Below are positions 6,008 through 18,889 of a stretch of DNA of 24,000 nt, in pieces; the first letter of the stretch is position 1, and each line of letters opens with the position of its first letter. Where the stretch lies: assembly GCF_003584645.1 (NCBI RefSeq), contig NZ_AP017928.1, positions 64,981-88,980 on the forward strand, read 5' to 3'. A program made the translations under genes and the position numbers. The DNA is from Methylocaldum marinum. Its GTDB lineage: Bacteria > Pseudomonadota > Gammaproteobacteria > Methylococcales > Methylococcaceae. The notes under the pieces were generated by a model. It had not been told where the DNA came from. It ran no database searches and saw only the letters and a program-made list of their open reading frames with translations.

Positions 6008-6964
6008 CTAGAGGTCCAGGCGAAACATACGGACATCTTCCCGCTCGGCGCGTTTCACCGCATCCTTCTGCCGTTTTTCGCCGCCGATGATTTCCGGCAG
6101 ATCGTTCACGGCGGTGAAGCAGAATCGCCGCGGCAAAGCGGTGTAGAGCGAGCGGGGCGGTTCCCCGCAGCGCTTGAACAAGCGCCCGCTGTCGTGGCTG
6201 TGATACCAGATGCGATGCAAGCCGAATACCTCGACGATCAGCCATAGGGCCGCGGTCAGCGCGGCGTCGTCCCAGTAGCGGCGGTGAAAGGCCAGCCGTT
6301 CCTCGTAGTAACGGACCACGTCCTGCCAGCGTCCGCCGATGAGGCGGAACAGTCGAGGACGTTTTTCCACCGGCCTGGTCAGCCACTGCCGGGCGCGGGC
6401 GGCGGCCCAGCGGGCGTTGCCTATCCAGTCACTCTGCACCTCCTCGATCAGAGCCTCGCCCCGGGTCCAATCCAGGTCCAGCCGTACCCAGGCCAAGGTT
6501 TCGCGCACGCTCGAAATCGGATGGCCGACATATTCGAAGGGGCCTGCACCGGTTTGTCCCCGGGGCCGGACGAGGCGGCGATAGTGTCGTACATGGTCGG
6601 CGGAGAAGTCGAGTCGCAGCACCAGATTGATGCCCCGGCGGGATGTTTGAGCCCATCGGAATCGATCACGCTCGCCGCTCCAGGTTCCGATGGACAGCCG
6701 AAAATGCTCGACTGTCGGAGACCAGTCCAGGTAGCGGACGGTCTCGGCAGAGAGCTTGCCGTCGCCGTGATGCGCCAGCAGGGCCTTGATATTCGGCTTG
6801 TGTAGCAGCCCCGCGAAAGGACCGCCGCGCAGTTCGGCGATGCGAGGGCCGCGCGCTGCCGCGTGGCCGAGCAGGAATACGCCGTAGCGGTCCGGGTAGT
6901 AATAGAAATAAGACGATTCGTTGCTCAGGCAGGCGATCAGTTCCTGAGCGAGTAGCATTTCCAT
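6008..6964 (-). CDS. Hypothetical protein downstream of rtcB paralogue 1. No family recognised.
   Basis: Long ORF with protein-like composition from MEMLLAQELIACL. The upstream part of the track ORF (to 7171) is low-complexity. Start at 6964 or 6958 is uncertain. Confidence 0.55.
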   Translation of the reverse strand: MEMLLAQELIACLSNESSYFYYYPDRYGVFLLGHAAARGPRIAELRGGPFAGLLHKPNIKALLAHHGDGKLSAETVRYLDWSPTVEHFRLSIGTWSGERDRFRWAQTSRRGINLVLRLDFSADHVRHYRRLVRPRGQTGAGPFEYVGHPISSVRETLAWVRLDLDWTRGEALIEEVQSDWIGNARWAAARARQWLTRPVEKRPRLFRLIGGRWQDVVRYYEERLAFHRRYWDDAALTAALWLIVEVFGLHRIWYHSHDSGRLFKRCGEPPRSLYTALPRRFCFTAVNDLPEIIGGEKRQKDAVKRAEREDVRMFRLDL

Positions 6965-7235
6965 GATGAAGTCCTGTGTGTTCGGGTTCGTCTTCGGCGG
7001 ATGTAGCCCCGGGTCGAAATTCGCCTTGCGGCGGGTTGCGACAGCGAATGAATCGGCACACTCATGGTTAGTCTCCTGGTTGGTTGTGTTGGCAAAGCCG
7101 GGCGGAAAGTCGTTTCGCCTCGGCTTTCGTATCATCGAATGGTTGGAGGAACGTGCCGCGTCGATGTCCACCGCCGACGTTTCGGAGGCAGGACAGCCGA
7201 CACGGCGTTCGCTGCTGAAACGGAAAACGAGCCTT

Positions 7236-8444
7236 TCAGCCTTTCACGCACACGACCTGCTTCAAGGTATGCACCACGTCCACCAGGTCGGTCTGGCGTT
7301 CCATCACCCGGTCGATGTCCTTGTAGGCTCCCGGAATTTCGTCCACCACGGCTTTGTCCTTGCGGCACTCGACGCCTTCCGTCTGCTGCGCCAGGTCGTG
7401 GCGATTGAAGCGGCGCTTGGCCTCGCTGCGGCTCATGCGCCGTCCCGCGCCGTGGGAGCAGGAGCAGAACGACGCCGAATTGCCCTTGCCGCGTACGACA
7501 TAGCTCTTGGCGCCCATACTGCCGGGGATGATGCCCAGTTCGCCGTCCCGTGCCGAGATGGCGCCCTTGCGGGTGATGAACAGTGCTTCGCCGAGGTGGG
7601 TTTCACGCGCCACGTAGTTGTGATGGCAATTGATGGCCTCGCCCTCGGTGCGAAACGGCGGCAGATGAGGCCGGATCGCTTCCAGGATCAGATCCAGCAT
7701 CATGCGGCGGTTCAGCAGGGCATAATCCTGAGCCCATTCCACGGCTTCCCAGTAGTCGTCGAACAGGGGCGAGCCGTCGGCGAACCAGGCCAAATCCTTG
7801 TCGGGCAGCCGAGTATGTTCCTTTTCCGCCAGCTTGCGCGCCGCCGCGATGAAATACCGGCCCATGCAGTTGCCGATGCCGCGCGATCCCGAATGCAGCA
7901 TCACCCATACTCGCGAGGCCTCGTCCAGGCACAGTTCGATGAAGTGGTTGCCGCCGCCGAGGGTACCCAGTTGGGAAACCCAGGTGCGGACGAACTGGCG
8001 CTGCATCTTCATCAGCCCCGGATGCTTGCCGACGATGCGGTCGAGCCGGTCCGTCAGCGGGCGAGCCAGGCGGGCATGGGCCGAACCCTGGATCTTGTCG
8101 TAGGGGTGCTGTTCGAACCCCACCGGTACCGCGGCTTCGATGGCGCTGCGCAGACGGGCGAGGCCGTCAGGCAGATGCTCGGCGGAAAGGCTCAAGCGCA
8201 CTGCGTTCATGCCGCAGCCGATGTCCACCCCCACTGCCGCGGGGATAATGGCGGCCCGGGTGGGAATGACGCTGCCCACCGTCGCGCCGATGCCGGCATG
8301 CACATCCGGCATGGCCGCCACATGCCCGTGGACGATGGGCAGTTGGGCCACATTGAGAAGTTGTTGCAAGGCGGCCGGCTCGATATCGTCGGTCCACACC
8401 ATGACCGGTACTCGCCCTTTGTTATATCTCTGTTGAATAGGCAT
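7236..8444 (-). CDS. rtcB: RtcB-family RNA 3'-phosphate/2',3'-cyclic-phosphate ligase, paralogue 1 (not in the rtc operon)
   Basis: MPDVHAGIGATVGSVIPT, GVDIGCGM, HSGSRGIG, GELGIIPGSMGA, FCSCSHGAGR and the C-terminal HTLKQVVCVKG. The ATG at 8444 gives an N-terminus of the same length as E. coli RtcB. Confidence 0.9.
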   Translation of the reverse strand: MPIQQRYNKGRVPVMVWTDDIEPAALQQLLNVAQLPIVHGHVAAMPDVHAGIGATVGSVIPTRAAIIPAAVGVDIGCGMNAVRLSLSAEHLPDGLARLRSAIEAAVPVGFEQHPYDKIQGSAHARLARPLTDRLDRIVGKHPGLMKMQRQFVRTWVSQLGTLGGGNHFIELCLDEASRVWVMLHSGSRGIGNCMGRYFIAAARKLAEKEHTRLPDKDLAWFADGSPLFDDYWEAVEWAQDYALLNRRMMLDLILEAIRPHLPPFRTEGEAINCHHNYVARETHLGEALFITRKGAISARDGELGIIPGSMGAKSYVVRGKGNSASFCSCSHGAGRRMSRSEAKRRFNRHDLAQQTEGVECRKDKAVVDEIPGAYKDIDRVMERQTDLVDVVHTLKQVVCVKG

Positions 8445-8487
8445 AAATCGAAATCTCTGAATGAAAGTCGGGCATGCGGCGGCCAAT

Positions 8488-8520
8488 AAAAAACCCCTGG
8501 CGAGTGCAACTCGCCAGGGG
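8488..8520 (-). terminator. Intrinsic terminator between the mini-ORF and rtcB paralogue 1 (candidate attenuator)
   Basis: Minus-strand RNA reads CCCCUGGCGAG-UUGC-ACUCGCCAGGGG followed by UUUUUU. The stem is 11 bp and G+C-rich. It also reads as hairpin + TTTT on the plus strand. Confidence 0.8.
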
Positions 8521-8534
8521 TTTTGGGAACCTCA

Positions 8535-8577
8535 GGCCAGTGCCCGGAATACCGGCACCGGCCACGAGACCGTGACC
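8535..8577 (-). promoter_or_regulatory. Two overlapping, mutually exclusive leader helices directly after the mini-ORF stop
   Basis: GGUCACG-GUCU-CGUGGCC (8577-8560) and GGCCGGUGCCGG-UAUU-CCGGGCACUGGCC (8563-8535) share the GGCC at 8560-8563. Confidence 0.5.
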
Positions 8578-8625
8578 TTAGCCGGTGGTGATCGTGATCG
8601 ACAGAAAGGACTTGGGTACGGACAT
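8578..8625 (-). CDS. Candidate leader peptide MSVPKSFLSITITTG (15 codons, Ile/Thr-rich C-terminal half)
   Basis: AGGAG-N8-ATG. Codons are AUG UCC GUA CCC AAG UCC UUU CUG UCG AUC ACG AUC ACC ACC GGC UAA. It lies between a strong promoter and a terminator. Confidence 0.5.
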   Translation of the reverse strand: MSVPKSFLSITITTG

Positions 8626-8690
8626 CGTTCGAGCTCCTGTATCGGATGAGGGGGGAATAAACCCCGGTTGGAAGAAACGCTGTGGGTGGT

Positions 8691-8718
8691 ATTTTAGGAG
8701 ACGCCCGCAACGTGTCAA
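8691..8718 (-). promoter_or_regulatory. Near-consensus sigma70 promoter (TTGACA-N16-TAAAAT) reading toward the mini-ORF and rtcB paralogue 1
   Basis: Minus strand reads tcTTGACAcgttgcgggcgtctccTAAAATacc. The -35 is at 8718-8713 and the -10 at 8696-8691. Confidence 0.6.
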
Positions 8719-8811
8719 GAAATTATCGGAGCGGCATTTCTTAAGTGCGTCGAGAGCAAGCATTCTCCTCTGCATAAGGGGGGCGCCCGGAACCGGACGA
8801 ACGATTTGTCT

Positions 8812-10794
8812 TCACTGCCTTGCGGCGAGCTCCCGTTGAACGCCGAACCAGATTCGGGTTTCCTCCCCGGTGAGCTCCAGGAACCGGTTGAATTCGGCTA
8901 TATCGTTCACCGGAATTTCCGCACGGGGCATCTTCAGCTCGGTGTAAACGGTGACGCGGTCGCGCTCTTTCCGGTAATAGCGATGAAAACTCCCCCAAAG
9001 CGACTGGTAATCCACTCTGGGTCCCAAATTGTCGATGCGGGCTCCCGAATTCAGCCGATACGTGATTTGGCTTTGAAAATCGATTCCCTGGAACGAATAC
9101 GGGTAGCGGCTGTTGGTTGTTTTGACGCTTCTCGCAAGATCGCGCAGCCATGGATCGACTTCGACGATATGGGTCATTTGAGCCGGATCGAAAGCGTTGC
9201 GGAATTCCGTGGTGGAACTGATGACCAGGGGGAACGACGGGTGGTCCAGGCCCGCTAATCGCAGGCTCGGACTCACCTTGTCTCCCATGATGTTGCGATA
9301 ATCCTCCAGGAGCCATTGTTCCCGATCCACCTGGGATCGGGACTCCAAACCCGAGCGAATCCCATCTGCCCAGTGAGAGTCGTAGCTTCTCTCGAGCGTC
9401 TCGACGATGGTTCCGTCATCGGTCAGGCGGTTGTCCGCTTTCATTTCCATCTTCCAGGTAAACGTTTCGGAAGCGAGGCTGCCCGGTGCCTCGGTTCCCC
9501 GGCCGACTGTCAGTTTCACCGCTCCGTGGATGGCGCGCGGCAGAAATTCGGCAGAAAGGTAGGGGTCCGTCAGATCGACGCAGGATTCATAGTTCGGCGT
9601 CAGCTTTACGCAGGCGATCATGTGATTGAAGTACGATGATGCCGGCAGCAGCAGTTTGGAGAGTGAGCGCCTGTTAGTCGATGTCAGCACGGGATAGGCA
9701 TCCAATCCCACCTTTCGGGCCAAATCGACGAACAGCATGGTTTTGTCCTTGCAGTCTCCGAAGCGGTGCGCCAGGGTCGTTGTCGTCGGTTTGGGGACCA
9801 CGCCGCTGTGTCCGTGTTCGATACCGACATAACGAATGTCGCGGGAGACGAAAGCGAACAGGCGGTTCAGCCGCTCTTCCGGCCGTGCGGCGTCACGGAT
9901 CAGACGCTCTGCCAATTCCTTGATTTCCTTGCCCTTCGATAGCGCTGAATCGGCCAGTGTCTGCATGGTGGCGGAGATGGCCGCCCAGCTCGTCGGTTCG
10001 GCCAGAACCAGTACCGGCAGGACGTCGTAAGGCGAGGGCATATCCCGCTCGGTCAGGACGGGAGGAATGGCTTTCTTCGTGGCGCAAGAGAGACTTAGGG
10101 GCGTTTCCCGGCATGCCAGTTCGGGGTAGTCGGTTTTCCACGCCGGTCGCCGCCGGTTGTCGATCCAGTCGACCCGGACTTGAAAACTCTCGATGGGGGT
10201 GAAGCGGGCCGGAAATAAAATCCGCGACCACGGCAGGGGCGATTTTTTCAAATCGGAGACCGTTTTATAAACCAGGACGGAAATGCTGCCCGGCCTTATT
10301 TGGGGAAACGGTACGGTGACGTAATACGAATCGTTGAAGATATCAGGAGAATTATCGCTGGTGATTTGCAGGGTGGCGGGATCGACCTCTATCGTCGTAC
10401 CGTCGGGCTGGAGGACGTAAGCCTCCAGAATTTCCGCCCGCTGAGTGGTTCCGTCGACCCAGAATCCGCTGTTTCCCCCATTCGATATCCCGCTGGACGT
10501 AACGTACAGCTGGATACTATGGGTGGTCTCCTCGTCGAGCTTGTCGTCCCTGAGCACAAATTCGTGCTTTTCGGCCAAGGTTACGCTCCCATAGCCGAGA
10601 TTCTGGAACAGGGACATTCTTTCCGCGTGCGGCAAAAGATCCTGATAGCGATAATGGGGCGGCACCGGAGACCAGCGCACGAGTTCCGTCGTGTTGCCCG
10701 GCAATTTGAGGACTCGGTTGGCTTTTGCGGCCGCCGTTCCGGCCGATATACCGAGCAACGCGAACAGGCCTATCAGCCGACAAATGATGCTCAT
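8812..10794 (-). CDS. Secreted DUF3857-like / transglutaminase-like cysteine protease family protein
   Basis: Signal peptide MSIICRLIGLFALLGISAGTAAA. Transglutaminase core RFGDCKDKT, then NHMIACV and VDLTD (Cys-His-Asp). Its start ATG overlaps the upstream stop (ATGA at 10791-10794). Confidence 0.75.
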   Translation of the reverse strand: MSIICRLIGLFALLGISAGTAAAKANRVLKLPGNTTELVRWSPVPPHYRYQDLLPHAERMSLFQNLGYGSVTLAEKHEFVLRDDKLDEETTHSIQLYVTSSGISNGGNSGFWVDGTTQRAEILEAYVLQPDGTTIEVDPATLQITSDNSPDIFNDSYYVTVPFPQIRPGSISVLVYKTVSDLKKSPLPWSRILFPARFTPIESFQVRVDWIDNRRRPAWKTDYPELACRETPLSLSCATKKAIPPVLTERDMPSPYDVLPVLVLAEPTSWAAISATMQTLADSALSKGKEIKELAERLIRDAARPEERLNRLFAFVSRDIRYVGIEHGHSGVVPKPTTTTLAHRFGDCKDKTMLFVDLARKVGLDAYPVLTSTNRRSLSKLLLPASSYFNHMIACVKLTPNYESCVDLTDPYLSAEFLPRAIHGAVKLTVGRGTEAPGSLASETFTWKMEMKADNRLTDDGTIVETLERSYDSHWADGIRSGLESRSQVDREQWLLEDYRNIMGDKVSPSLRLAGLDHPSFPLVISSTTEFRNAFDPAQMTHIVEVDPWLRDLARSVKTTNSRYPYSFQGIDFQSQITYRLNSGARIDNLGPRVDYQSLWGSFHRYYRKERDRVTVYTELKMPRAEIPVNDIAEFNRFLELTGEETRIWFGVQRELAARQ

Positions 10795-12595: not shown

Positions 12596-14203
12596 TCAGC
12601 GGGTGGCGAGATCCGCCGCCTGTACGCTCTTCCAGTTCAAGCCGAACCGTGCAAGATACTTCCGCAGCCGGTCCGCGTCGTTGCTGCTGGCGCGAGTCGA
12701 GCGGGACACCGCGAACAGGCGGCGGCCGGCATCGGAGAGGCTGGCCGACTCGCGGCAGATTCGAATCACCGATTCCAGTTGCAGCCGGTCGAAAAGATCG
12801 ATTTTGGCCAAATCCTCCGCCGGAATCAGACGATCGATGCATTCGGTCCGGGCGTCGCCGCCGGGCTCCCACTGGCGGCGCAGCCGGGCGATCTCGGTGT
12901 CCACCAGGGCGTCGGATATGCGGCCGCCGTCCGCCAGGGTCGCAAGGCGCATCACGGAAGCGCCGAGATCGCGGAAATTGCCGGTCCAGCGGGCGGCCGG
13001 CGAGGTCGCGAAGCTCAGATATTTCTGCCGGGCCTCTTTGCTGAAGCGCACCATTCGCCCGAGCTCGGCGGAGTGACGGGCTAGAAGATAGTCCAGGTTC
13101 GGCTCGATGTCTCCGGGCCGCTGGGCAAGGCCGGGCAGGCTGTAGGTCCAGAGATTGATGCGGGCGAACAAGTCCTCGCGGAACCGTCCGGCGATGACGT
13201 CCCGGCGCAAATCCCGGTGGGTGCCGGCGATGAGCTGAAAATCGCTGCCCACCTCCAGATCACCGCCCACCGGGAAGAAGGTCTTTTCCTCGATCGCCTT
13301 GAGCAGCATGGCCTGCTCGTCCGCTCCGAGTTCGCCGATCTCGTCGAGAAACAATAATCCTCTGTCCGCGCTGCGCAGGAGGCCGCCGCGCGCCGTTACC
13401 GCGCCGGTGAACGCGCCTTTGACGTGGCCGAACAAGGCCGAAGCGGCGCCGTCTCCACGCAGGGTGGCGCAGTTGACTTCGACGAAGCGGCCGTCGATCT
13501 GGCGGCGTGCCTTTTTCAGTTCGTACACCCGCCGCGCCAGGAAGGATTTGCCGGCCCCGGTCGGTCCCATGAGCAGGATGGGCGCCCTGGAGCGTACCGC
13601 CACCTGCTCGATTTCGGTGATCACCCGGTTGAAATGCTCGTTGCGGGTGGCAATGCCGGATTTGAGCAGAGCGATGGCGTCGGACTGTTCGCGGGCGAAG
13701 CGCCGGGCTATGGGGTCGTACTTGGACAGATCCAGGTCGATGAGCGCGTAATCGCCGACCTGGTTGATGCCATGCCGCTTGGGCGGGGAGCTTTGCAGCA
13801 AGAGGCCGGGGAGGTAGCGCGCCTCGGCCATCAGAAACAGGCAGATCTGCGCGACGTGGGTACCCGTGGTGATATGAATCCAGTACGCCTCCTCGTCGGT
13901 ATTGAAGGGATAAGCCGTGGCGAAGTCGAACAGCGCCGAGTAGACCTCGCCGAAATCCCAGGGATCGGCGATGTCCAACGCGACTGGATGAACTTTTGTC
14001 TCGGGCGAGACCGAGGCGATGTCGGCGACCAGCTGCTCGACCAGGGCGAGATGCCGGTGCGTGTAGAGCAGTTCGAAGCGATGCACTACCAGGTCCTCGC
14101 GCTGAGTCAGGGCTACCGTGGGACGCCATTTCTCCCAGCGCCCGCTGGTCTTTCCGGAATCGAGCTGGGTGCCGACGAAACCGATGACGACGATTTTTTT
14201 CAT
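12596..14203 (-). CDS. rtcR: RtcR, sigma54-dependent transcriptional activator with an N-terminal CARF-type sensor domain
   Basis: N-terminus MKKIVVIGFVGTQLDSG...WEKWRPTV. AAA+ Walker A GPTGAGKS and the GAFTGA sigma54-contact motif. Divergent from rsr-rtcBA. Confidence 0.9.
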   Translation of the reverse strand: MKKIVVIGFVGTQLDSGKTSGRWEKWRPTVALTQREDLVVHRFELLYTHRHLALVEQLVADIASVSPETKVHPVALDIADPWDFGEVYSALFDFATAYPFNTDEEAYWIHITTGTHVAQICLFLMAEARYLPGLLLQSSPPKRHGINQVGDYALIDLDLSKYDPIARRFAREQSDAIALLKSGIATRNEHFNRVITEIEQVAVRSRAPILLMGPTGAGKSFLARRVYELKKARRQIDGRFVEVNCATLRGDGAASALFGHVKGAFTGAVTARGGLLRSADRGLLFLDEIGELGADEQAMLLKAIEEKTFFPVGGDLEVGSDFQLIAGTHRDLRRDVIAGRFREDLFARINLWTYSLPGLAQRPGDIEPNLDYLLARHSAELGRMVRFSKEARQKYLSFATSPAARWTGNFRDLGASVMRLATLADGGRISDALVDTEIARLRRQWEPGGDARTECIDRLIPAEDLAKIDLFDRLQLESVIRICRESASLSDAGRRLFAVSRSTRASSNDADRLRKYLARFGLNWKSVQAADLATR

Positions 14204-14347
14204 GAGATGTCACGCTAAAGCTTTATCCGGAAGTATAGAAAATGCCGGGGCTGTCGTTCTCCGGTTTTTTCTTGCTGTCTGACGTTGATTCAATTAAGTC
14301 TCATAAACTCAATGGCTTAAAAAATTTCATCGGCCGTTATCAAGGCC

Positions 14348-14363
14348 TGGCACACCGATTGCT
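14348..14363 (+). promoter_or_regulatory. Sigma54 (-24/-12) promoter of the rsr-Y RNA-rtcBA operon
   Basis: TGGCACaccgaTTGCT matches the consensus TGGCAC-N5-TTGCW. It lies ~40 nt upstream of the rsr ATG, which has an AAGGAG RBS. Confidence 0.85.
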
Positions 14364-14404
14364 CTAAGACTGGCGTAATCCAAAACGATAACAAGGAGAA
14401 CGTC

Positions 14405-15958
14405 ATGGCGAACTTACAGTTGTTCCGGAGCCTGCGCGGCCGACTACTGCCGCCGGCCGGCGCCCTAAACCACGAAGGTGCTCCGAGCTATGGTTTCAGC
14501 CCTAAACACCGATTGGCCCAATACGCGGCCACCGGCTGCCTGAGCGGGACCTTCTACGCCGGGGCCGAAGCGCAACTGGACACGATCCTCGCGCTGTGCC
14601 GGGAGGTGGATGCCCGATTCATCGCCAAGACTGCCGTTTACTGCCGCGAGAGAGGTTATATGAAAGACACTCCCGCTCTGCTGGCGGCGGTGCTGACGAT
14701 CCGGGGCCGGGAATTCCTGCCCGAGGTGTTCGGCCGCGTGATCGGCAACGGCCGGATGCTGCGCAACTTCGTGCAGATCCTGCGGAGCGGCGCGGTCGGC
14801 CGGAAGTCCCTGGGTACTCGGCCGAAAAAGCTGATTCAGCGATGGCTGAACCAGGCTTCCGAGCGGGACTTGCTGAACGCCGCGGTGGGCAACGCGCCGT
14901 CGCTGGCAGACGTGGTGAAGATGGTTCACCCGAAGCCGGCCGAGCCGTGGCGGGAAGCGTTCTTCGCCTGGCTGATCGGCAAACCTTACGATGAATTGGC
15001 CCTGCCGCCGACGACGCGGGCGTTCGAGGCGTGGAAGCGCGATCCCTCGGGAGAACCACCGGAAGTGCCGTTCCAGATGCTGACGGCGCTCGATCTCGAT
15101 GCCGAGCAGTGGGCACGGATTGCCCGGCAGGGTGGGTGGCAGATGGTTCGCATGAACCTCAACACCTTCGTCCGGCACGGCGTGTTCGAGATCAACGGAA
15201 TGGCCGACACGGTCGCGGAAAAACTGCGTGACGCGAAGGCCATCGCCAGAGCGGGTGTATTTCCGTACCAGTTGCTTGCCGCCTACCGGGCGGCGGGGAA
15301 GGGCGTACCGCCGGTGGTCCGGGAGGCTTTGCAGGATGCGCTGGAGATTTCCCTGGCGAACGTGCCGGAGATGCCCGGCCGGGTCGTGGTCTGCCCTGAT
15401 GTGTCGGGTTCGATGAGCTCGCCGGTGACCGGTTTTCGCGGTTCGGCGAGCACCGCGGTGCGCTGCATCGATGTGGCGGCCCTGATCGGGGCGGCCTTGC
15501 TGCGGAAGAACCGGGAGACAATCGTGCTCCCGTTCGAGAACGATGTGGTGACCGTAGATCTGAATCCGCGCGACACGGTACTGACCAACGCGGAGAAGCT
15601 GGCGAGTATCGGCGGGGGCGGCACCAATTGCAGTGCTCCCCTGGCTCGGTTGAACCGCCGAAAGGCCAAGGCCGATCTCGTGCTGATGGTCTCGGATAAC
15701 GAGTCCTGGGTCGACGCCACCCGGCGCGGAGCGACGGCCACGCAGCGGGAATGGGAAACCTTCCGGCAGCGCAACCCGGCGGCCAAGCTGGTCTGCGTGG
15801 ATATCCAGCCGTACGGCACCACGCAGGCGGCGGAACGCGACGATATTCTGAATATCGGTGGATTTTCCGACGAGGTGTTCAGAGTATTGGGCACGTTCGC
15901 GGCGGGGCAGCTGAATCCGGAGCACTGGGTAGGCGTCATCGAGGAAATCGTTTTGTAA
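14405..15958 (+). CDS. rsr: Rsr (Ro60 orthologue): TROVE domain plus a C-terminal vWA domain
   Basis: N-terminal TROVE-like sequence (NHEGAPSYGFSPKHRLAQYAATGCLSGTFYA...KTAVYCRERGYMKDTPALL). vWA MIDAS motif DVSGSM. Operon context with rtcR/rtcB/rtcA. Confidence 0.88.
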   Translation: MANLQLFRSLRGRLLPPAGALNHEGAPSYGFSPKHRLAQYAATGCLSGTFYAGAEAQLDTILALCREVDARFIAKTAVYCRERGYMKDTPALLAAVLTIRGREFLPEVFGRVIGNGRMLRNFVQILRSGAVGRKSLGTRPKKLIQRWLNQASERDLLNAAVGNAPSLADVVKMVHPKPAEPWREAFFAWLIGKPYDELALPPTTRAFEAWKRDPSGEPPEVPFQMLTALDLDAEQWARIARQGGWQMVRMNLNTFVRHGVFEINGMADTVAEKLRDAKAIARAGVFPYQLLAAYRAAGKGVPPVVREALQDALEISLANVPEMPGRVVVCPDVSGSMSSPVTGFRGSASTAVRCIDVAALIGAALLRKNRETIVLPFENDVVTVDLNPRDTVLTNAEKLASIGGGGTNCSAPLARLNRRKAKADLVLMVSDNESWVDATRRGATATQREWETFRQRNPAAKLVCVDIQPYGTTQAAERDDILNIGGFSDEVFRVLGTFAAGQLNPEHWVGVIEEIVL

Positions 15959-15972
15959 GAGGTGGGTGAAGC

Positions 15973-16041
15973 GCCCGCGAATGCCGGTGTGATTACATCG
16001 CTGTCACCGATATACGGATCACATCAATTCTTGTCGCGGGC
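15973..16041 (+). ncRNA. Y RNA-like module 1 (short, YrlB-like, no tRNA-like domain)
   Basis: Closing stem CCCGCGA (15974-15980) / TCGCGGG (16034-16040). Conserved cores GCGAATGCC (15977-15985) and CTTGTCGC (16030-16037). Inner stem TGTGAT/ATCACA. Confidence 0.5.
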
Positions 16042-16061
16042 CTTCACATTGTTTGATTCCA

Positions 16062-16166
16062 GTGCGAATGCCGGCTTGGACTACATTGGTAAGCGGGAAA
16101 CCGCTCGGGTTCGACTCCCGTGATGCCGGGGTAACCGGTATCAGGTCCAGCCAATCCTTGTCGCAC
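16062..16166 (+). ncRNA. Y RNA-like module 2 (closing stem + T-arm-containing multi-hairpin domain)
   Basis: GTGCGA (16062-16067) / TCGCAC (16161-16166). GGCT(T)GGAC pairs with GTCCAGCC with a bulged T. Internal hairpins are AGCGG-GAAA-CCGCT, the T-arm CGGG-TTCGACT-CCCG, and GCCGG-GGTAA-CCGGT. Confidence 0.6.
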
Positions 16167-16186
16167 GCTCTTTTGGCAATAGTTTG

Positions 16187-16295
16187 GCGCGAATGCCAGG
16201 CAGGACTCCATCGGGTCGCCGGTTCGATCCCGGCCCGCGCTTCGGCGCGGTAGCTCAGCGGGTAGAGCAGATGTCCTGCCGCCCTCTTGTCGCGC
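16187..16295 (+). ncRNA. Y RNA-like module 3 (YrlA-like, with a complete permuted tRNA mimic)
   Basis: GCGCGA (16187-16192) / TCGCGC (16290-16295). GGCAGGAC pairs with GTCCTGCC. T-arm GCCGG-TTCGATC-CCGGC (16218-16234). Acceptor hairpin CCGCGC-TTCG-GCGCGG (16235-16250). D-arm TAGCTCAGCGGGTAGAGCA (16251-16269). Confidence 0.75.
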
Positions 16296-16314
16296 TACTT
16301 TCTTGACGATTTAT

Positions 16315-16437
16315 GGCGAATGCAGGTGGAACTACATGCCTACGATGCCGGTTGTCGCGGGTTCGATCCCCGCCGGTCTCACCAGGGACCGTAGCTCAGC
16401 GGATAGAGCACCGAACGTTTCACCGATCCTTGTCGCC
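16315..16437 (+). ncRNA. Y RNA-like module 4 (YrlA-like, permuted tRNA mimic with an ACCA acceptor loop)
   Basis: GGCGA (16315-16319) / TCGCC (16433-16437). GGTG(G)AAC pairs with GTTTCACC with a bulged G. T-arm GCGGG-TTCGATC-CCCGC (16357-16373). Acceptor CGGTCTC-ACCA-GGGACCG (16374-16391). D-arm TAGCTCAGCGGATAGAGCA (16392-16410). Confidence 0.75.
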
Positions 16438-16447
16438 GATCTTTTTT

Positions 16448-16572
16448 GCGATGAATGCAGATGGAACTACAGGGTAAAGCGGTGGGTGAAGAGCCCACAG
16501 GTTCCGGGTTCAAGTCCCGGTCGGCCCATGGCCGGTAGCGAAATAGCGAGTTTCATCGATCCTTGTCATCGC
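16448..16572 (+). ncRNA. Y RNA-like module 5 (T-arm-containing, degenerate D region)
   Basis: GCGATGA (16448-16454) / TCATCGC (16566-16572). GATG(G)AACT pairs with AGTTTCATC with a bulged G. Hairpin GTGGG-TGAAGAG-CCCAC, T-arm CCGGG-TTCAAGT-CCCGG, hairpin CGGCC-CAT-GGCCG. It ends 24 nt before the rtcB ATG. Confidence 0.6.
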
Positions 16573-16595
16573 ACCTTGATGTTGGGGGAAGACTC

Positions 16596-17816
16596 ATGAA
16601 CCAGGAAAACTACGAAGTCATTCAGCCGGCTGATGGCCGGCACATCAAGCTGTGGACCCGAGGCGTGCCGGTCGAGGACGACGCCAAGACACAGGTGTGC
16701 AACCTCGCCCGGTTGCCGTTCATCTTCAGCCATCTGGCGGTGATGCCGGACGTCCATTTGGGAAAGGGCTCGACCATCGGCAGCGTGATCCCGACTCTGG
16801 GTGCCGTCATTCCGGCGGCGGTCGGGGTGGATATCGGCTGCGGGATGATCGCGGCGCGTACTTCGCTGAGCGCCGCCGACCTGCCGGACAACCTGGCGGG
16901 CTGGCGCGCCGCCATCGAGAAGGCCGTGCCGCACGGCAGGACGCCCGGTAACCGCGACCGCGGCGCCTGGAGCAACCCGCCGGCGGACGTCGACGCGGTG
17001 TGGGCGGAGCTGGAACCGGACTTCCGGCGCATCGTCGAAAAGCACCCGAAGCTGGCCAGGACCAACAACCGTAACCACCTGGGGACGCTCGGAACCGGCA
17101 ACCACTTCATCGAAGTCTGCCTGGACGAGGCCGATAAGGTCTGGCTCATGCTGCACTCGGGGTCGCGCGGGGTCGGCAACGCTATCGGCAGCTATTTCAT
17201 CGAGCTGGCGAAAGAAGACATGCGGCGCTATTTCATCAACCTGCCCGATGCGGACCTGGCCTATTTTCCGCAAGGCACGGAGCATTTCCGCGACTACGTG
17301 GAGGCGGTCGAATGGGCGCAGAGCTACGCCCGGCTGAACCGCGCGCTGATGATGAAGCACGTGGTCGAAGCCGTGCGCGGGGTAATGGCAAAGCCGTTCG
17401 AAGCGGAAGTCGAGGCGGTGAATTGCCACCATAATTACGTACAGCGCGAGCACCACTTCGGAAAGAACATCCTAGTGACCCGCAAGGGCGCGGTTTCGGC
17501 GCGGGACGGCGAACTCGGCATCATCCCGGGTTCCATGGGCGCGCGCTCCTACATCGTGCGCGGCAAGGGCGAGGAGCAATCCTTCTGCTCGTGCAGCCAC
17601 GGTGCCGGACGGATGATGTCGCGTTCCGAGGCGAAGCGGCGTTTCACCGTGGCCGATCAGGCCAGGGCCACCGAGGGCGTCGAGTGCCGCAAAGATGCCG
17701 AGGTGATCGACGAGATTCCCATGGCGTACAAGGATATCGACGCGGTGATGCGAGCCCAGGCGGATTTGGTGGAGATCGTGCACACCCTGAAGCAGGTGGT
17801 GTGCGTGAAAGGATAG
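16596..17816 (+). CDS. rtcB: RtcB RNA ligase (operon copy, paralogue 2)
   Basis: MPDVHLGKGSTIGSVIPT, GVDIGCGM, HSGSRGVG, GELGIIPGSMGA, FCSCSHGAGR and C-terminal HTLKQVVCVKG. ATG at 16596 follows GGGGGAAG. The track start at 16563 would lie inside Y module 5. Confidence 0.92.
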   Translation: MNQENYEVIQPADGRHIKLWTRGVPVEDDAKTQVCNLARLPFIFSHLAVMPDVHLGKGSTIGSVIPTLGAVIPAAVGVDIGCGMIAARTSLSAADLPDNLAGWRAAIEKAVPHGRTPGNRDRGAWSNPPADVDAVWAELEPDFRRIVEKHPKLARTNNRNHLGTLGTGNHFIEVCLDEADKVWLMLHSGSRGVGNAIGSYFIELAKEDMRRYFINLPDADLAYFPQGTEHFRDYVEAVEWAQSYARLNRALMMKHVVEAVRGVMAKPFEAEVEAVNCHHNYVQREHHFGKNILVTRKGAVSARDGELGIIPGSMGARSYIVRGKGEEQSFCSCSHGAGRMMSRSEAKRRFTVADQARATEGVECRKDAEVIDEIPMAYKDIDAVMRAQADLVEIVHTLKQVVCVKG

Positions 17817-17863
17817 GACCTAACCGAATCTCAAGCGGGACAGAAGTTATATCGGGAGAAATC

Positions 17864-18889
17864 ATGACCCAGTGGTTGGAATTGGACGGCTCGGAGGGCG
17901 AGGGCGGCGGACAGATTCTGCGAACGGCGTTGTCCTTGTCCATGTGCACCGGCACGCCCTTCCGCATCGTGAATATCCGCGCCAAGCGCAAAACGCCGGG
18001 GTTGATGCGTCAGCATCTCACCGCGGTGCAGGCTGCGGCGGAGATTTGCGGGGCGGAAGTCGACGGCGGCCGGGTGGGCTCCCAGGCCTTGAGTTTCGCC
18101 CCGGACAAAATCCGCGGCGGCGATTATCGCTTCGCCATCGGCACCGCGGGCAGTTGCACCCTGGTATTCCAGACCGTGTTGCCGGCCCTGTTGCTTGCAG
18201 ACGCATCCAGCCGCATCGAGTTCCACGGCGGCACCCACAATCCGATGTCGCCGCCGTTCCATTTCCTGGAACGCGCCTTTGTGCCGCTGCTGCGCCGGAT
18301 GGGGGCGGAGGTTTCGCTGGAGCTGAAGCGCTTCGGGTTTTACCCCGCCGGCGGCGGGAGCTGCACGGCCCGCATCGAACCGGTAGCGAAGCTCATGCCT
18401 CTGGTTCTCGAACAACGCGGCGCCCGTTTGCGCGCCTACGCGGAAAGCTTCATCGCCGCTCTGCCGGTCCATATCGCCCGGCGCGAACTGGATGTGATCC
18501 GCAGGCGACTGGGGTGGAGCGATGAGCAAGTCCTGCTGCGCGGTCTGGCGAACGATCAGGGACCGGGCAATGCCTTGCTGGTAACGTTCGAACACGACCA
18601 AGTTACGGAGGTCTTCAGCGGCTTCGGAGAAAAAGGCATCACCGCGGAAACCGTGGCCGAGAGAACCGCCGACCAAGTGCGCCGCTATCTGGCTTCGGGA
18701 GCCGCAGTGGGGTACTACTTGGCCGACCAGTTGCTCTTGCCGCTGGCCTTGGCCGGCGGCGGCTCGTTCACGGCGTCGGCATTAAGCCGGCATACGCTCA
18801 CCAACGCCGAAGTCATCCGGCGATTCCTCGGGATCGGGATTCGGATGGACAAAACCGGCGATGAAGCGTTTCGAATAGAGCTCGGATAG
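17864..18889 (+). CDS. rtcA: RtcA RNA 3'-terminal phosphate cyclase
   Basis: LDGSEGEGGGQILRTALSLSM, LMRQHLTAVQAAAEICGA, GGDYRFAIGTAGSCTLVFQTVLPAL and FYPAGGG closely parallel E. coli RtcA. The track N-terminal extension (from 17591) overlaps rtcB and is rejected. Confidence 0.92.
   Translation: MTQWLELDGSEGEGGGQILRTALSLSMCTGTPFRIVNIRAKRKTPGLMRQHLTAVQAAAEICGAEVDGGRVGSQALSFAPDKIRGGDYRFAIGTAGSCTLVFQTVLPALLLADASSRIEFHGGTHNPMSPPFHFLERAFVPLLRRMGAEVSLELKRFGFYPAGGGSCTARIEPVAKLMPLVLEQRGARLRAYAESFIAALPVHIARRELDVIRRRLGWSDEQVLLRGLANDQGPGNALLVTFEHDQVTEVFSGFGEKGITAETVAERTADQVRRYLASGAAVGYYLADQLLLPLALAGGGSFTASALSRHTLTNAEVIRRFLGIGIRMDKTGDEAFRIELG

Follow-up and report, generated by a model that had tools for sequence, protein, structure and literature searches.

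In a 24,000-nt stretch of the Methylocaldum marinum genome (contig NZ_AP017928.1, positions 64,981 to 88,980; the whole stretch is called the window below), the orphan gene rtcB paralogue 1 (rtcB1) is preceded by a compact cassette in which a promoter, a short upstream open reading frame (uORF), several overlapping helices and a G+C-rich terminator follow one another. Fold predictions and comparison with orthologous loci point to a uORF-dependent transcription attenuator that would set how much transcript reaches rtcB1, a reading to which we give a probability of roughly 0.65. All cassette coordinates are positions in the window, on the minus strand unless stated, and the parts are as follows.

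8691-8718, minus strand: sigma70-type promoter, TTGACA (8718-8713), 16-nt spacer, TAAAAT (8696-8691), 11 of 12 consensus positions
8652-8667, minus strand: hairpin of the 5' leader, CCGGGG-UUUAUU-CCCC, from fold predictions
8634-8638, minus strand: Shine-Dalgarno (SD) sequence AGGAG, 8 nt 5' of the uORF ATG
8578-8625, minus strand: uORF of 15 codons plus UAA, read from the sequence, encoding MSVPKSFLSITITTG
8621-8615, minus strand: segment 0, CCGUACC, uORF codons 2-4; pairs with segment 1 in the ribosome-free minimum free energy (MFE) fold
8571-8586, minus strand: segment 1, ACCGGC (the last two sense codons), the UAA stop and GGUCACG; would be covered by a ribosome at the stop codon
8551-8566, minus strand: segment 2, CGUGGCC..GCCGGU; partner of segment 1 (7 + 6 bp), or of segment 3 via GGCCGGUGCCGG (8563-8552)
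8528-8547, minus strand: segment 3, comprising CCGGGCACUGGCC (8547-8535), the 3' arm of the 2:3 hairpin, and ACUGGCCUGAGGUU (8541-8528), the proposed antiterminator 5' arm
8509-8522, minus strand: segment 4, AACCCCUGGCGAGU, the terminator 5' arm; pairs with segment 3 (antiterminator) or with segment 5
8485-8505, minus strand: segment 5, the terminator 3' arm ACUCGCCAGGGG (8505-8494) followed by UUUUUUAUU, from the fold and the U-run
7236-8444, minus strand: rtcB1, 402 amino acids (aa), the putative regulated gene (Pfam RtcB, E = 1e-126)

An initial annotation of this DNA had described, by reading the letters, the TTGACA-N16-TAAAAT promoter, the AGGAG-N8-ATG start with its 15-codon ORF and two mutually exclusive helices, and all of these are present. 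The promoter is the sole promoter-like site detected by a pattern scan of positions 7000-10000; its position predicts a transcription start site near 8684, and initiation there is probably strong and constitutive. The first helix pairs GGUCACG with CGUGGCC (8577-8560) and the second pairs GGCCGGUGCCGG with CCGGGCACUGGCC (8563-8535), GGCC being common to both. The G+C-rich hairpin followed by U6 (8520-8488) was also recognized correctly, except that its stem is of 12 bp and not 11: 8520-8509 pairs with 8505-8494 around a 3-nt loop (-24 kcal/mol), and U6 follows at 8493-8488. From the U-tract to the rtcB1 ATG (8444) there are 43 nt, which, as had been noted, leaves no room for a separate promoter. 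A simple terminator scan of 7000-10000 listed no terminator; the hairpin and U-run are nonetheless plain in the sequence and in the folds, and the blank at 8485-8520 is a miss of the scanner. The 211-nt leader as a whole has an MFE of -88.6 kcal/mol (z = -5.3), and none of 200 dinucleotide shuffles folded as well.

The hairpin at 8652-8667 has a G-rich arm that mimics the terminator 3' arm, and RNAfold pairs this arm with the terminator 5' arm in truncated transcripts. Similar hairpins are seen in several, not all, Methylococcaceae 5' leaders.

Conservation of the cassette in orthologous loci

Relatives were compared in their rtcB-flanking DNA, which comprised 80 genome and 80 metagenome loci carrying orthologues (67-86% identity) and nine closer loci obtained by protein search and contig look-up. 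Upstream of most orthologues of the 402-aa clade in Beta- and Gammaproteobacteria, the parts follow in the same order: the promoter (TTGACA/TAnAAT) comes first, then an SD-led uORF of 7-18 codons, a structured region and a terminator rich in G+C, with rtcB beginning 18-110 nt further on. Carriers belong to Methylococcaceae, Steroidobacteraceae, Oxalobacteraceae (Massilia, Janthinobacterium, Collimonas, Duganella), Chitinibacteraceae, Rhodocyclales, other Burkholderiales, Marinobacter and Alcanivorax, and 75-81 non-redundant leaders of this architecture precede orthologous rtcB genes. The leader is missing from most of the remoter orthologues, which have about 70% identity and usually about 398 aa, and the metagenome scan returned no closer relative with a leader of the window type, its best match (80% identity) being without one.

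Within the nine Methylococcaceae leaders, TTGACA-N16-TA(A/G)AAT is kept and the sequence of the spacer varies freely; the region from the stop codon to the terminator is about 90% conserved and the body of the uORF diverges. The frame of the uORF is preserved all the same, every indel being 3 or 6 nt long, while the peptide diverges. Across all leaders, 54-68 nt usually separate the stop codon from the terminator. In each subfamily the stop codon lies directly against segment 1, and no leader lacks an SD-led ORF, an SD match having been among the detection criteria of the leader scans. The gap between terminator and rtcB ATG is 18-50 nt in many orthologues and only 18-25 nt in the shortest cases, so that a separate promoter has no room there. 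The genes flanking leader and rtcB differ in every close relative (loci L161-L169); leader and rtcB are therefore a self-contained unit that seems to relocate together.

Judged from these alignments, the cassette is conserved and is more than a chance arrangement, and this conservation is the best evidence for it. The initial annotation had recognized the architecture of ribosome-mediated attenuation attached to an RNA ligase, a view borne out by the order of parts, the position of the stop codon and the terminator, all kept across genera, which speaks for a function. It had also proposed that orthologous loci be compared for the mini-ORF, its Ile/Thr codons and covariation in the helices: the position and frame of the mini-ORF turned out to be conserved, the Ile/Thr-rich tail is confined to Methylococcaceae, and covariation is minimal in the subfamily of the window.

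In Oxalobacteraceae (L004-L066 and others), a conserved box, CCCCGGCAUAAC, lies 3' of the terminator and before the rtcB ATG, at a variable distance. Its CAUAAC is complementary to a GUUAUG that includes the rtcB start codon, and its CCCCGGC repeats the terminator 5' arm. This box may be a second, translational layer of control.

Alternative folds and the proposed mechanism

No competing helix had been recognized by eye in the initial annotation. Folding supplies a candidate antiterminator, in which ACUGGCCUGAGGUU (8541-8528) pairs with the terminator 5' arm AACCCCUGGCGAGU (8522-8509) at 11 of 14 positions; other competitors for that arm are predicted once the full leader is folded (see below). 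When this segment is folded in isolation, the antiterminator is the local MFE structure in 9 of 9 Methylococcaceae leaders (-12.1 kcal/mol in the window, -11.5 to -16.3 in the eight relatives). Its 5' arm shares bases with the 3' arm of the strong 2:3 hairpin (8563-8552 with 8547-8535), and segment 1 (8586-8571) can pair with 8566-8551 and thus compete for the 5' arm of that same hairpin. The leader can accordingly be described as a chain of helices in which neighbours exclude each other (0:1, 1:2, 2:3, 3:4 and 4:5).

Three states of the window leader were folded. With no ribosome, the MFE structure contains 0:1, 2:3 and the terminator. With a ribosome at the stop codon, it contains 2:3 and leaves most of the terminator 5' arm unpaired. 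When segment 1 was left free and everything behind the ribosome was removed, it consisted of exactly 1:2 and 3:4. In 81 non-redundant leaders, the mean pairing probability of the terminator 5' arm was 0.69 with segment 1 free versus 0.47 with the ribosome at the stop codon; the shift exceeded 0.2 in 40 of the 81, and a reverse shift of that size occurred in none. Among 75 leaders for which dinucleotide-shuffled counterparts were computed, the mean difference was 0.23 for the real sequences versus 0.014 for the shuffled ones, and a difference above 0.1 was reached by 83% versus 19%.

Pairing is well kept in the alignments. In nine sequences the two 1:2 helices are 98% and 92% paired, with one double change; in Methylococcaceae, pairing reaches 96% in the 2:3 helix and 97% in the terminator helix, each of which has one compensatory pair (CG to UA and GC to AU, respectively). 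For the two alternative states in 25 Oxalobacteraceae leaders, the values are 93-96%, versus 28-65% in slid controls. A long-range helix between the SD and an anti-SD sequence shows double (compensatory) changes at 5 of 9 pairs in the same 25 leaders, and masking the first codons in Oxalobacteraceae lifts pairing of the terminator 5' arm from about 0.3-0.5 to 0.7-0.9.

Of the features expected of an attenuator, the locus shows a promoter directly 5' of the leader, a conserved SD-led ORF and an intrinsic terminator before rtcB, besides the predicted alternative folds; that the uORF is translated, which ribosome footprints apply, in which direction the switch works in vivo and what its physiological inducers are, we infer. 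In the model, the absence of a ribosome, or its release, would allow 0:1, 2:3 and 4:5 to form and transcription would end at 8488. A ribosome at the stop codon would cover segment 1, and 2:3 and 4:5 would again lead to termination. A ribosome held inside the uORF (A site at about codons 2-13) would hide segment 0 and leave segment 1 free; 1:2 would then form, segment 3 would be released to pair with segment 4, and RNA polymerase would read into rtcB. The signal would be slow or blocked elongation on the leader from any cause, such as damaged or uncharged tRNAs, damaged ribosomes, ribosome-targeting toxins or antibiotics, or starvation. Since this layout recurs in many related bacteria, the ligase is probably switched on by ribosome stalling.

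Several results weigh against this model. In the window's subfamily the helices barely vary: no double change occurs in the antiterminator, and 1:2, 2:3 and the terminator have one apiece. The antiterminator gives z-scores of only -1.6 to -2.7 against shuffles, and the value for the window (z = -2.2, p about 0.03) is moderate. At about -12 kcal/mol it is also much weaker than the -24 kcal/mol terminator, and could therefore act only kinetically. With the entire 5' leader in the fold, the terminator 5' arm is paired elsewhere by RNAfold in all ribosome states, the rival partners being the conserved GGGGUUU arm (of the 8667-8652 hairpin) or the SD region; ribosome masking with the whole 5' leader accordingly gives no switch signal in the window, and the signal appears only when the sequence behind the ribosome is excluded. 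In the window, the SD:anti-SD pairing that stands out in other subfamilies is weak and ranks only 34 of 86. Finally, the sequences within a subfamily are phylogenetically related, so that there are fewer independent observations than leaders counted.

The SD:anti-SD helix was also considered as a universal switch. It is clear in Oxalobacteraceae, some Burkholderiales and some Rhodocyclales and weak in the window, and was rejected as the main mechanism there.

Leader peptides and rival explanations

The closest rival keeps attenuation and makes it specific for Ile and Thr: AUC ACG AUC ACC ACC would be regulatory codons, and a shortage of charged or intact tRNA-Ile or tRNA-Thr the inducer. This had been the hypothesis of the initial annotation, and it is an unlikely one. 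In its favour, an Ile/Thr-rich tail closes all nine Methylococcaceae leaders (ITITTG, IKIITG, ETITTG, NTIITG, FIFITG, FIFISG, KTNITG, NIITTG), with synonymous variation of its codons (AUC/AUU/AUA, ACC/ACG/ACA), and AYN (Ile/Thr) codons make up 0.30 of codons in frame versus 8-12% out of frame. The tail also occupies codons 10-14, near the last A-site positions (to about codon 13) that would leave the inner 1:2 helix free. Against it, leaders of the same architecture in other subfamilies have no Ile/Thr bias, the 1:2 helix dictates the last two codons (ACC GGY), positions -3 and -4 tolerate Phe and Asn as well, the tail is simply G-poor, as uORF interiors are elsewhere, and rtcB has no biosynthetic link to Ile or Thr.

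The peptides themselves are unrelated across the family (MPRTAIHNAQHR, MFEQAGSKYDH, MHASNNLETNMNNAR, MPATAKTKETMR, MSAHNLSGVTATR, MTAATLAR, MKSQLKSSQR). In 78 distinct leader peptides, residue use was 12% T, 10% N, 10% R and 5% I, and no regulatory amino acid was common to the family. AY dinucleotides have a 3-nt periodicity inside the uORFs, in a codon phase that differs by subfamily: NAY (Asn/His/Asp/Tyr) codons in frame reach 0.31 in leaders of the Steroidobacter type and 0.25 in those of the Oxalobacteraceae type. The differing phases rule out the periodicity as a single amino-acid signal, and suggest a constraint at the level of RNA rather than of amino acids. As to the Methylococcaceae tail, it is partly structural, ACC GGY being a helix arm, and may partly follow from a constraint towards G-poor composition. 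The supposed likeness of the tail to the enterobacterial ThrL peptide has no support from RNA homology, and the leader has no match to Thr_leader (RF00506) even at E <= 10. Across the family, these sequences do not support general Ile/Thr sensing, and the cue is probably not specifically a shortage of isoleucine or threonine; of the original proposal, what stands is the Ile/Thr-rich tail in the nine Methylococcaceae leaders, where a local Ile/Thr bias in sensitivity is a minor possibility.

Less probable still is that the RNA between stop codon and terminator is a riboswitch-like element, or a sensor that binds a protein or RNA (RtcB, broken RNA ends), with the uORF incidental or tuning. Conservation in the leader is indeed highest over the roughly 90 nt after the stop codon (the window and the related locus L001 are about 90% identical there, with a diverged uORF), the z-score of the leader MFE is strong, and a structured RNA (YrlA) is used in RNA-repair biology at the paralogous locus. 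However, no Rfam 15 family reached its gathering threshold on the leader in the window or in 19 related loci, and the structured region consists almost entirely of the mutually exclusive helices typical of attenuators, with no evident conserved unpaired pocket; nor would a ligand sensor need a stop codon abutting segment 1 or a constant SD-led ORF. It is very improbable that the stretch from promoter to terminator is an independent gene (a small RNA of about 195 nt or the 15-aa peptide) with rtcB transcribed from another start site. A small RNA gene, too, would show a near-consensus promoter and, after it, a strong terminator, and a terminated leader transcript would be abundant and could act in trans. 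In the rtcB-flanking loci examined, however, the unit is always found directly before rtcB and in the same orientation, whichever family the locus comes from and whatever its neighbours; the terminator-to-ATG gap is short in many loci (18-50 nt), no second promoter-like site occurs in 7000-10000 and the peptide is not conserved.

Second RNA-repair locus, known systems and significance

The product of rtcB1 is 100% identical to the Methylocaldum marinum RtcB in a protein search, and 59% identical to that of the RtcR-linked copy in the same window. Stretches common to both include GVDIGCGM, NHFIE, LHSGSRG, NCHHNY and CSHGAGR, which we take to cover the metal-binding residues and the histidine nucleophile. 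Against TIGR03073 (release-factor-H-coupled RtcB) it scores 148 bits, below the cutoff of 271.8, it is 29% identical to E. coli RtcB2, and no RF-1 domain gene (prfH) was found downstream of rtcB1 or in the loci of close relatives. By these comparisons rtcB1 is an orphan, is predicted to be catalytically intact and belongs to the canonical RtcB clade, not to the PrfH-linked clade. The 387-aa ORF 3' of rtcB1 (6008-7171, minus strand) has no Pfam or NCBIfam match. The other copy lies in a complete second RNA-repair locus (12596-18889), composed of:

12596-14203, minus strand: rtcR
14348-14362: perfect sigma54 box TGGCACACCGATTGC, 5' of rsr, a motif match
14405-15958: Ro60/Rsr gene
16313-16442: YrlA Y-RNA-like gene (Rfam, 82 bits)
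16563-17816: second rtcB, beside rtcA
ending at 18889: rtcA

A search of the whole window for TGGCAC-N5-TTGC matched only 14348-14362, and no sigma54 box lies 5' of rtcB1; the two rtcB copies thus have different control regions, rtcB1 being without a sigma54 box and the other copy being associated with RtcR and sigma54. This agrees with the earlier suggestion that the cassette is a sensing route separate from the RtcR/CARF control of the second copy, since rtcR, the sigma54 box and YrlA are all at the other locus. Like the proposed rtcB1 attenuator, RtcR (CARF-sigma54) controls an RtcB ligase (in rsr-yrlA-rtcB-rtcA) and responds to RNA or translation damage. The mechanism differs, as RtcR is an enhancer-binding protein acting on a sigma54 promoter and rtcR adjoins the other rtcB copy. 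Under the attenuator model, the stalling route would give RNA repair a further input in addition to RtcR.

The nearest precedent is PA5471.1 of P. aeruginosa, a 13-codon leader about 250 bp 5' of armZ (PA5471), an RtcB-like gene beside prfH (PA5470); full translation of this leader lets a terminator form, stalled or aborted translation leads to read-through, and armZ is induced by ribosome-targeting drugs and by defects in suhB, cca, fmt and folD (PMC12057347, PMC13041342, PMC3516279). Leader-peptide stalling, including stalling via tRNA defects in a cca mutant, thus induces an RtcB-family gene in that system (PMC13041342). In both systems an RtcB-family gene is preceded by a short leader ORF, of 15 codons in the window and 13 in P. 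aeruginosa, where the promoter is constitutive; the PA5471.1 leader was likened to that of the window by its published description, not by sequence. Unlike armZ, rtcB1 belongs to another RtcB clade, has no prfH partner and has no known anti-repressor role.

SD-led uORFs of 13-15 codons also occur 5' of PrfH-linked rtcB2 genes in E. coli, in the AT-rich contig L172 and in Pseudomonas sp. YH-1. Their coordinates in the respective loci are:

L170, 1740-1787: uORF in E. coli K-12, 5' of ykfJ/prfH
L171, 478-525: uORF in the strain with an intact operon
L172, 1341-1385: uORF in the AT-rich contig
L173, 1365-1406: further PrfH-linked rtcB2 uORF

The encoded peptides MTNPLSMTLCRPFQD, MTTLLCTLCGLLQN and MQALITLCRSRLA share a TLC(R/G) core, which is absent from the window peptide MSVPKSFLSITITTG, and resemble the known PA5471.1 leader. 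The PrfH-linked upstream regions have no obvious similarity to the window leader, no formal comparison having been made, and the paper on E. coli RtcB2-PrfH mentions no leader (PMC9223846). In K-12, L170 carries at about 1850-1925, between the rtcB2 uORF and the ykfJ pseudogene, a stretch that is absent from L171. This stretch resembles an ERIC/IRU-type repeat.

The cassette shares with the trp, his, thr, leu and ilv attenuators a promoter, an SD-led mini-ORF, overlapping helices and a terminator just 5' of the first structural gene, and the predicted logic is also theirs: an untranslated or fully translated leader would give termination, and stalling would give read-through. A weak match to His_leader (RF00514; 35.5 bits, E = 5e-4, below the gathering score of 49) is probably driven by the terminator. 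Unlike the classical leaders, those of rtcB have no run of regulatory codons conserved across the family and the controlled gene is an RNA ligase; unlike the trp leader, the chain in the window has two more segments, and a stalled ribosome would therefore have to leave the first segment after the ORF free instead of covering it. In leaders of ABC-F genes (seen by Term-seq) and of erm genes, a block of elongation on a uORF remodels the leader and relieves premature termination, and the likeness to the rtcB leaders lies in this generic principle of sensing an elongation block. Those leaders usually need drug-specific nascent-peptide arrest motifs and control resistance determinants, whereas no arrest motif is conserved in rtcB leaders. 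The window leader is thus predicted to function like the armZ leader and the classical attenuators, and it belongs to neither sequence family.

Literature searches found no leader peptide or attenuator described for canonical rtcB. The cassette represents a widespread leader family that is unannotated and absent from Rfam 15, for which armZ is a precedent within the RtcB family. One wider reading, tentative and rather unlikely, is that leader attenuation is ancestral and general for RtcB ligases outside RtcR control and couples them to the condition of the translation machinery, the ArmZ-MexXY circuit being a derived use, and that the codons of each subfamily are tuned to the tRNAs locally at risk. 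Its scope would be the canonical orphan rtcB of Beta- and Gammaproteobacteria together with the PrfH-linked rtcB2 of Enterobacterales and Pseudomonas. For tRNA tuning, the pertinent contrast is between Methylococcaceae leaders, rich in Ile/Thr (AYN) codons, and those of Oxalobacteraceae and Steroidobacter, rich in NAY codons; the tRNAs that read these belong to the queuosine family and are cut by anticodon nucleases of the colicin E5 type. If this were true, the uORF would be a damage sensor for specific tRNAs, which the induced ligase would later reseal.

RtcB is the main bacterial ligase that reseals broken tRNAs and rRNA. To our knowledge RtcR, which senses damaged tRNA ends, is the only well-studied route of its control. 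The cassette suggests a second, protein-free route, which would sense a consequence of RNA damage, ribosomes not getting to the end of a short ORF, and would link RNA repair directly to the state of translation. The PA5471.1-armZ-MexXY circuit, which is of medical importance and had been regarded as a peculiarity of MexXY regulation, now looks like one case of a general habit of the RtcB family.

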